This document shows, piece after piece, positions 30,222 to 30,410 of a stretch of 50,849 bases of DNA. The translations under genes were made by a program, and so were the position numbers. A model generated the notes under the pieces. That model saw only the letters and a list, made by a program, of their open reading frames with translations, was not told where the DNA came from and did not search any database. Position 1 is the stretch's first letter, and each line of letters starts with the position of its first letter. Origin of the DNA: Escherichia phage BabyEgg. Location of the stretch: sequence record PP925846.1, one strand, 5' to 3'.

Positions 30222-30410
30222 TAAAAATAAAGAGTTTATTTATCTATGTATCTATATTTGTTTTTATTTGTTCTCTGTGTTTCATTGGGTTGTGGTGTGT
30301 AGCATGTTTGGTGAGTGTATTGATGTATGCAATTACGGATGCTCACTGCATATTGCATATGTATGTATAAAGCTGCGCAGATACGCGAACGCGAGAACAG
30401 AAAAATAACA
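30222..30410. promoter_or_regulatory. AT-rich divergent control region, copy A of a duplicated ~190-bp element
   Basis: about 70% identical by eye to 50506-50700; ends with CGCGAACGCGAGAACAG. Confidence 0.6.

Follow-up and report, generated by a model that had tools for sequence, protein, structure and literature searches.

A duplicated, conserved AT-rich module in the two divergent control regions of T1-like phages is a candidate replication origin

The ori and crr elements of phage P4 are separated cis sites that carry the same short repeats, lie ∼4.5 kb apart and are both needed in cis, and the primase, helicase and DNA-binding domain of P4 are united in one protein. In work by Ziegelin et al. 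in 1993, the alpha primase-helicase is reported to have bound both ori and crr. The reverse complement of GAACA, TGTTC, is part of the P4 type I iteron, TGTTCACC; a literature search for this iteron returned primer sequences only. The presence of both ori and crr in P4 is documented (PMC9942202). The Rep proteins of SaPIs are self-loading helicases whose C-terminal winged helix binds iterons of 5–6 nt, and the SaPI origin has a centre rich in AT, flanked left and right by two or more iterons that point in opposite directions (PMC9371898). For T1-like phages, a 21-nt intergenic repeat, aaATAGCACnnnTTGnTAAAA, has been described in the report of the TLS genome, which left its function as an open question, listed this repeat alone and found no iterons or origin (PMC11447400). 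The description of AAS23 notes, for the gene set found in these phages, that neither a loader nor a protein binding the origin is known (PMC8004638).

The window analysed here is the whole 50,849-bp stretch of DNA that makes up the complete, circularly written genome of Escherichia phage BabyEgg (PP925846.1), a T1-like phage (Drexlerviridae, Tempevirinae, Warwickvirus) with the same gene order as T1. Two of its intergenic control regions, both 96–97% identical to those of Escherichia phage MatMar, contain the element under study. An earlier note on this DNA had placed both segments at points where transcription diverges, and the gene positions on either side of the regions, here termed A and B, agree with this placement.

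Region A: the 511 bp that separate cor (29807-30040, minus strand) from the exonuclease VIII-Erf-SSB operon (start at 30552, plus strand)
Region B: the 728 bp that separate the first gene of the leftward early operon (end at 50121) from gene 1 (start at position 1)
30186-30411: copy A, aligned core; local alignment to 50469-50697, with orthologues in seven other genomes
50469-50697: copy B, aligned core; local alignment to 30186-30411, with conservation in relatives
30208-30267: AT core of A, the second least stable 60-bp duplex of the genome and a candidate DNA unwinding element
50480-50539: AT core of B, the least stable 60-bp duplex of the genome

Homology, duplex stability and conservation of the two copies

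The earlier note had set pairwise alignment, judged against the identity expected from AT-rich composition, as one check on the duplication. Global alignment of 30222-30410 with 50506-50700 gave 62% identity (127/205) and a score of 27, compared with 50.9 ± 1.9% (maximum 56.5) and −25 ± 6 for dinucleotide shuffles of those segments; six other AT-rich stretches of the BabyEgg genome reached only 44–48%. The best local alignment, of 30186-30411 with 50469-50697, has 64% identity (153/239) and a score of 43 against 12.2–12.9 ± 1.7–1.8 in shuffles (maximum 21), and stricter local scoring afforded 54 against 21 ± 3, such that the local A–B alignment exceeds the shuffles by 11–17 standard deviations. 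The similarity lies far above composition chance, and all four shared blocks that had been named are present in both copies, although the identity is 62–64% rather than the ∼70% first given.

Both cores stand out in nearest-neighbour free energy. In BabyEgg, each has a z of 4.5, with the third-ranking segment at 3.3, and the ranking is unchanged at the 40-bp and 100-bp scales. The same calculation was applied to eight genomes: BabyEgg, T1, A127, A16a and E6 (three Hanrivervirus-like phages), SECphi27, Enterobacter phage BHUENT9 and Klebsiella phage Samwise. The A and B cores occupy the first two ranks in instability in every one of them (z of 4.5–5.8, with rank 3 at 3.1–3.8). An AT-rich, easily melted centre of the SaPI type is thus present in both modules, as judged by these two ranks.

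The A/B pair itself is found in all eight genomes, with position, orientation and block order kept, which bears out the view of the earlier note that the element is a shared functional module rather than random AT-rich spacer. Similarity between A and B is significant in each genome, with scores of 35–79 versus 13 ± 1.6 for shuffles of the seven genomes other than Samwise, for which the score is 76. In A16a and SECphi27, it spans ∼365–380 bp and extends into the upstream region of the rightward promoter. Block order is kept across genera at ∼65–70% identity, and the orthologue alignments contain indels of 1, 2 and 4 bases. Within the Tempevirinae, orthologues (A with A, B with B) are closer than paralogues (A with B), so the duplication is older than the radiation of this subfamily. 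In T1, the paralogue score (35) is higher than any Tempevirinae orthologue score (at most 27). On the sequence evidence, A and B are real, ancient copies of one control module.

Repeat anatomy and a candidate reader

The block order of the module was derived from alignments of the A copies, of the B copies and of all twelve together (six genomes). From left to right, it begins with an outer-left repeat, an A-rich inner repeat and the TATA-rich core, which in relatives contains AAATCAATAAGTTA. To the right of the core lies TTGTT..TTGTT.TCT..GTTT, nearly invariant among the A and B copies of the six genomes, followed by a variable GT-rich stretch of 60–100 bp and the TATGTATATATA block. Next are the GAACA...GAACAGAAA.A.AACAA repeats, then ATCAATCACTTA, then ATTTTGTTAT; the rightmost block is an A-rich repeat adjoining the −35 of the strong rightward promoter. 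The repeats of BabyEgg are as follows.

30113-30133, minus strand: outer-left repeat of A (GAGAACAGAAAAAACAAAT on this strand), adjoining the leftward promoter; part of inverted repeats I2 and I3, with motif matches
30255-30283, minus strand: inner-right repeat of A (TTGTTTTTATTTGTTCTCTGTGTTT), conserved more strongly than any other block of the module; pairs with 30393-30419 as inverted repeat I1
30385-30412, plus strand: right repeats of A (GAACGCGAGAACAGAAAAATAACAA), with motif matches and inverted repeats
30470-30488, plus strand: promoter-proximal repeat of A (GAAAACAGAAAAAACAAAT), at the UP-element position of the exonuclease promoter; part of inverted repeat I2
50397-50427, minus strand: left repeats of B, two GAACA-type copies on this strand, with inverted repeats and motif matches
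50469-50490, plus strand: inner-left repeat of B (GCGAACGCAAAAAACAAAATAAA), adjoining the AT core; block I of the alignment
50540-50566, minus strand: inner-right TGTT-repeat block of B, the homologue of 30255-30283
50676-50698, plus strand: right repeat of B (AGCGCGAACAGAAAGAAAACAAG), with motif matches and inverted repeats
50757-50796, plus strand: promoter-proximal repeats of B (CGCGAACAGG, GCGAACG and ACGAACAAAATAAACA), adjoining the −35

Both regions are large imperfect palindromes. In A, 30113-30131 pairs with 30470-30488 (I2; 19 nt, 95%) and 30119-30133 with 30391-30405 (I3; 15 nt, 100%); the pairs in B are 50400-50415 / 50781-50796 (16 nt, 100%) and 50415-50427 / 50757-50769 (13 nt). 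On either side, the outer repeats point away from the core, which is touched by an inverted inner pair. The BabyEgg repeat unit is composed of GAACA, an A-tract and ACAA (GAACARAAA..ACAA, or GAACARAAAnAAAACAA in its extended form). In A, repeats are located at 30129(−) and 30187(+) left of the core and at 30273(−) and 30395(+) right of it, with GAAC[AG]/AAACA variants on the right side at ∼30385(+) and ∼30472(+). In B, they are located at 50413(−), 50423(−) and, as a variant, 50471(+) on the left, and at 50681(+), 50761(+) and 50783(+) on the right. At least two opposed repeats therefore flank each side of the AT centre in A and in B, as in a SaPI origin.

All four genome matches to the motif GAACA[GA]A{2,3}[ATG]A{2,6}CA, which was defined post hoc, fall in A or B, as do four of the six matches to [AC]GAACA[GA]A[AT]A. 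The bare GAACA pentamer is not significantly enriched, its density of 5 per 500 bp being also reached in two other stretches of the BabyEgg genome. The three closest A-type orthologues share the sequence AGAACAGAAAAAACAAA without change, and the others, BabyEgg included, depart from it by one to three bases; an exact search of viral contigs with this 17-mer gave random low-complexity matches and was uninformative. Features annotated as 'repeat_region' in haarsle and Jahat_MG145 were set aside as automatic calls of 12–34 nt whose meaning is not stated. T1 has a different word at the equivalent places: TGTAACA, with six of six genome copies in A or B, and GTGTAACA, with four of four. Three tandem CGATTAACA units lie upstream of the T1 B promoter.

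Homologues of the DUF3987 helicase at 36–58% identity provided more distant loci, of which five were informative (L140, L141, L142, L143 and L145); a locus search with the exonuclease protein returned only six close loci. At all five, the least stable 60-mer of the locus is situated immediately upstream of the helicase operon, in the divergent intergenic region (z of 3.6 in the short L143 contig and 4.5–5.9 in the other four), and this segment is flanked on both sides, in both orientations, by lineage-specific short repeats. Their copy numbers are given as intergenic over total in the locus.

L140: GGGGAAG (plus GGGTTAA), 5 of 6
L141: GGGCGA(A), 7 of 15
L142: GGTAACA, 5 of 9
L143: TGGGGT, 11 of 15
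L145: TTGTACGC-type (TTGTACG), 4 of 6

The concentration of repeats at the module is clear in T1 (6/6), L140 (5/6) and L143 (11/15). The element is immediately adjacent to the helicase operon in L140, L141 and L143, as expected of an origin beside its initiator gene and as in SaPIs. This arrangement is not seen in BabyEgg, where B is ∼4 kb upstream of the helicase gene and A is 14 kb away. L140 and L141 carry exonuclease-type (DUF3799) and SSB genes, and L140 an ERF gene too, within the helicase operon, so a single control region serves them; in the Drexlerviridae, the exonuclease/SSB and helicase genes are split into two operons with one copy of the module each. The repeats differ among lineages that infect the same enterobacterial hosts, which argues for a phage-encoded reader rather than a host factor.

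The candidate for such a reader is the DUF3987 helicase, one of the replication-related and regulatory genes listed here.

35932-36894: Zn-ribbon primase (PF08273)
36901-37536: Cro/YdaS-like HTH regulator
44856-46439, minus strand: DUF3987 helicase, candidate repeat reader (Pfam match, AlphaFold model, Foldseek)

A SNF2-type helicase is also encoded, and there is no DNA polymerase among the BabyEgg genes. A small conserved gene (46507-46728) lies directly upstream of the DUF3987 helicase gene, likewise in the distant relatives. Built on an alignment of 33 homologues, the AlphaFold model of the helicase (pLDDT 88.9) has an MCM-like AAA+ ATPase fold, and residues ∼450–525 form a predicted C-terminal winged helix of H-E-H-H-E-E topology. 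Searches of the PDB with the helicase and primase sequences found no significant match. A Foldseek search with the model returned MCM2-7 as best (E values down to 3e-5), with weaker matches to Cdc6/Orc1 and to the SaPI5 primase-helicase 7ola. The predicted model thus combines an AAA+ helicase with a C-terminal winged-helix DNA-binding domain, as in the SaPI initiators.

Each change of repeat type goes with a change in the first residues of the winged-helix recognition helix.

GAACA repeat (seven genomes): GQAGVMKR, invariant
GTAACA-type repeat, T1: GQQKVA, with a one-residue deletion shared with L142
GTAACA-type repeat, L142: GQQDVA, with a one-residue deletion shared with T1
GGGCGAA repeat, L141: AQGGVSKK
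GGGGAAG repeat, L140: GIPHIYER
TGGGGT repeat, L143: GIPQLYAR

This match would fit co-evolution of repeat and recognition helix, a correspondence that is confounded with phylogeny.

The module resembles a SaPI ori in its AT-rich centre with short opposed repeats on both sides, and the candidate initiator resembles SaPI Rep in being an AAA+ helicase with a C-terminal winged helix, accompanied by a separate primase and no dedicated loader. The two systems differ in that the BabyEgg repeats are longer and more degenerate (a GAACA core plus an A-tract tail), with binding and origin activity being putative, and in that the BabyEgg genome holds two copies, both set between divergent promoters, while the origin of SaPIs is found downstream of rep; the fold of the BabyEgg helicase is closest to MCM, and its match to SaPI5 is weak. 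With P4, BabyEgg shares two separated cis elements with common short repeats, as in ori/crr, and the T1-like primase carries the same Zn-ribbon domain (PF08273) as the P4 protein. Unlike in P4, primase and helicase are encoded by separate genes and the two copies are 20 kb apart.

Promoters, operator-like sites and a probable packaging sequence around the module

Four promoters flank the two copies.

30495-30522, plus strand: rightward σ70-type promoter of the exonuclease-Erf-SSB operon (TTGACT-16-TAAAAT), conserved in orthologues
50797-50824, plus strand: rightward consensus σ70 promoter of gene 1 (TTGACA-16-TATAAT, 12/12)
30072-30114, minus strand: leftward cor promoter, a 21-nt family repeat with TATAGT 18 nt downstream
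50157-50200, minus strand: leftward promoter of the early/helicase operon, a 21-nt family repeat with TACATT 19 nt downstream

No pair of σ70 −35 and −10 hexamers at 16–18-bp spacing is present within 30186-30411 or 50469-50697. The promoter array that the earlier note had suggested as one of three functions is accordingly not inside either copy; promoters flank the element instead.

Host-factor binding was another of these functions. The exact IHF core WATCAANNNNTTR, preceded by an A/T tract, is absent from A and B of BabyEgg, and the three exact matches in the genome are elsewhere. One-mismatch sites are found in copy A at 30226-30238 and 30419-30431, and their counterparts in copy B are more degenerate. 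In A127, A16a, E6, SECphi27 and BHUENT9, the exact core occurs at two homologous positions, one within the AT core and one ∼180 bp to its right; in BHUENT9, the core in the module is the sole match in the genome. The relatives thus lend slight support to a host factor, against which stand the degenerate sites of BabyEgg and the lineage-specific repeats.

The element has no match to the 21-nt Drexlerviridae repeat. The two have in common that they are conserved across the family, non-coding and located in the same control regions, although the sequences differ. BabyEgg has 17 copies of the 21-nt repeat, all outside the element, the nearest being at 30096-30114 and 50182-50200. Several features of this repeat were observed separately. 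A −10-like hexamer lies 18–19 nt downstream of the repeat ATAGCACTTTTTGTTAAAA in 14 of the 17 copies (chance ∼4% per site), examples being the sites at 730, 2221, 6171, 37388 and 40944 (+) and at 30114, 44343, 47187, 49116 and 50200 (−); this gives the repeat the look of an upstream promoter half, in a class without a normal −35 that perhaps needs an activator. Its first half, AAATAGC(AC), also occurs in the spacer of both consensus σ70 promoters (30509-30516 and 50811-50819). This box is kept in the A-type promoters of the relatives and, among their B-type promoters, only in SECphi27. Given its occurrence in both kinds of promoter, a single ATAGCAC-binding protein could repress the early promoters and activate those with the 21-nt repeat. 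The same GC-rich hairpin (CGCCCGGC....GTCGGGC) is situated between the 21-nt repeat and the −10 at 44302-44344, 47146-47188 and 40941-40990, which suggests a sub-class of these promoters with a common spacer structure. T1 has two leftward 21-nt-repeat promoters in its B-type region.

Region B contains further sequences of its own. At 50216-50255, two operator-like TTATTCC sites are followed by two inverted GGAATAA-type half-sites; the cluster adjoins the leftward early promoter and is kept in relatives including T1 and L142, and region A has none. With this separate palindromic operator set in B, the repeats of the module are left free for another role. Region B alone also has a stretch of GATTG/GTGATT repeats, at 50265-50345. 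In T1 and TLS, the corresponding stretch includes position 1 of the record, which is the mapped pac end, and 50265-50345 is likely the pac region of BabyEgg. The ribosome-binding region of the first leftward gene (50124-50133, GCTATCTCCT) recurs as an exact 10-nt copy 233 bp upstream, at 50357-50366, with no start codon after it; this copy may be a relic of a duplicated promoter/RBS unit. Elsewhere in the genome, a 63-bp tandem duplication (35190-35315, 86% identical) lies inside the gene for a 658-aa tail fibre (33850-35826, minus strand).

Replication and transcription as possible roles of the module

Homology, conservation, duplex instability, repeat layout and helicase fold are all compatible with A and B being two origin-type modules, either as two origins or as one origin with a cis-acting enhancer or partner. 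We put the probability of this reading at about one half, on the basis of anatomy, comparative genomics and the helicase fold. A replication origin is, by inference from the same three lines, the best supported of the functions listed in the earlier note, and A and B are the best candidates so far for the replication origins of T1-like phages. GC skew tracks gene orientation only and is uninformative on the origin.

From the observed anatomy, we infer a protein that binds the repeats, melting of the core and a start of replication at A and B. In the mechanism proposed, the C-terminal winged helix of the helicase would bind the repeats on both sides of the AT core in a manner like that of SaPI Rep, after which the helicase would melt the core and load itself, and the phage primase and host polymerase III would take over. 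Because transcription from the divergent promoters leads outward on both sides, it is proposed to put negative supercoiling into the core, which would ease opening; in the relatives, an IHF site inside the core could add a bend. The two copies would represent two origins, or an origin and a cis-acting partner as in P4 ori/crr.

The main rival, which we consider rather unlikely, assigns the module no replication role: it would be a purely transcriptional upstream activating or operator region of the two strong rightward early σ70 promoters, made up of A-tract or UP-like repeats, bendable AT-rich DNA, IHF sites and sites for a phage regulator that would turn these promoters on or off, possibly with looping. 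AT-rich upstream regions with Fis or IHF sites stimulate rrnB P1, ilvPG and λ pL, and the module is similar to these in its destabilised AT-rich DNA, its IHF-like sites, its location upstream of consensus promoters and its A-tract repeats between −40 and −60, as in UP elements. Repeats are at the UP-element position by the −35 of both σ70 promoters and also by the leftward cor promoter, exact IHF cores occupy the two homologous positions in relatives, and a Cro/YdaS-like HTH regulator is encoded at 36901-37536. The orientation of the module relative to the rightward promoter is the same in both copies of all genomes, and the A–B similarity of A16a and SECphi27 (∼365–380 bp) reaches the promoter; both observations count against the origin reading in that promoter control fits them equally. 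The location of the modules away from the helicase gene in the Drexlerviridae also counts against the origin reading. A transcriptional region would, however, have to act from AT cores ∼260–350 bp upstream of the rightward starts, past the usual reach of UP, Fis or IHF elements. The repeats of the distant phages are G-rich (GGGGAAG, GGGCGAA, TGGGGT) and not UP-like, yet the layout is unchanged; an operator array needs no first and second rank in genome instability; copy B already has its separate palindromic TTATTCC cluster; and the IHF cores of BabyEgg are degenerate. The element is also distinct from σ70 upstream activating regions in spanning 350–400 bp and in having lineage-specific repeats, with conservation even where these are G-rich. 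The two roles are not exclusive. Iteron-type initiators often regulate nearby promoters as well, and the repeats adjoining the −35 hexamers probably act on the promoters too, either as UP-like elements or in autoregulation.

Two further explanations carry far less weight. It is very unlikely that the element forms part of the recognition site for terminase packaging (pac). As far as we know, T1 has not been reported to start a second headful packaging series. The TLS report mentions only one such series (PMC11447400). In the T1 record, position 1 marks where the annotated terminal redundancy begins; in the TLS record, it corresponds to the pac site that restriction analysis had mapped (PMC11447400). 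Both positions lie in the B-type intergenic region, as this explanation would have it. These starts are, however, ∼215 bp left of the B core in a GATT(T)G stretch without counterpart in A, so pac is a neighbour of copy B rather than the duplicated element itself; moreover, copy A is 20 kb away and the small-terminase gene ∼8.5 kb away. Record breaks of relatives near region B were not used as evidence, since they probably reflect the T1 numbering convention (PMC13164509). Least probable of all is that the element has no function, being left over from an old duplication or an AT-rich resemblance by chance, or, as a variant, that it encodes a small protein or RNA. Gene callers do place small hypothetical ORFs here in the close relative MatMar, and ORFs of 62 and 56 aa overlap the two BabyEgg copies; their products share only a 17-aa patch and the orthologue indels are not multiples of three, for which reasons these ORFs were judged non-coding. 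An Rfam scan of the whole BabyEgg genome found no family, and copy A is not a structured RNA by its folding on the two strands (z = −1.1 and −0.8). Against remnant and chance alike stand a similarity far above that of shuffles and other AT-rich segments and a block order kept across genera at ∼65–70% identity.

A fuller version of the origin-type reading, to which we give slightly less than an even chance, has A and B as the T1-like origins, or as one origin with a partner like P4 crr; the iterons, which would evolve fast and differ between lineages, would be read by the winged helix of a self-loading, MCM-like helicase. Divergent early transcription would be coupled to firing, and B, beside the packaging start, would form a 700-bp hub for early transcription, replication initiation and pac.

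A literature search found no description of the duplicated A/B element. The kind of element is already known; its occurrence in T1-like phages, in two copies and together with an MCM-like winged-helix helicase, appears to be new. T1 is a classical T phage and the type of a very large family, the Drexlerviridae, with hundreds of sequenced members that include common laboratory contaminants and therapy candidates. For these phages, the analysis provides two precise, conserved candidate origins, a candidate initiator domain and lineage-specific pairs of repeat and recognition helix, and the question of the origin is therefore directly testable. If the origin-type reading is true, the SaPI-type mechanism of a self-loading helicase and its iterons would extend to a major group of virulent enterobacterial phages, and would offer parts for engineering and for reading specificity between phages.
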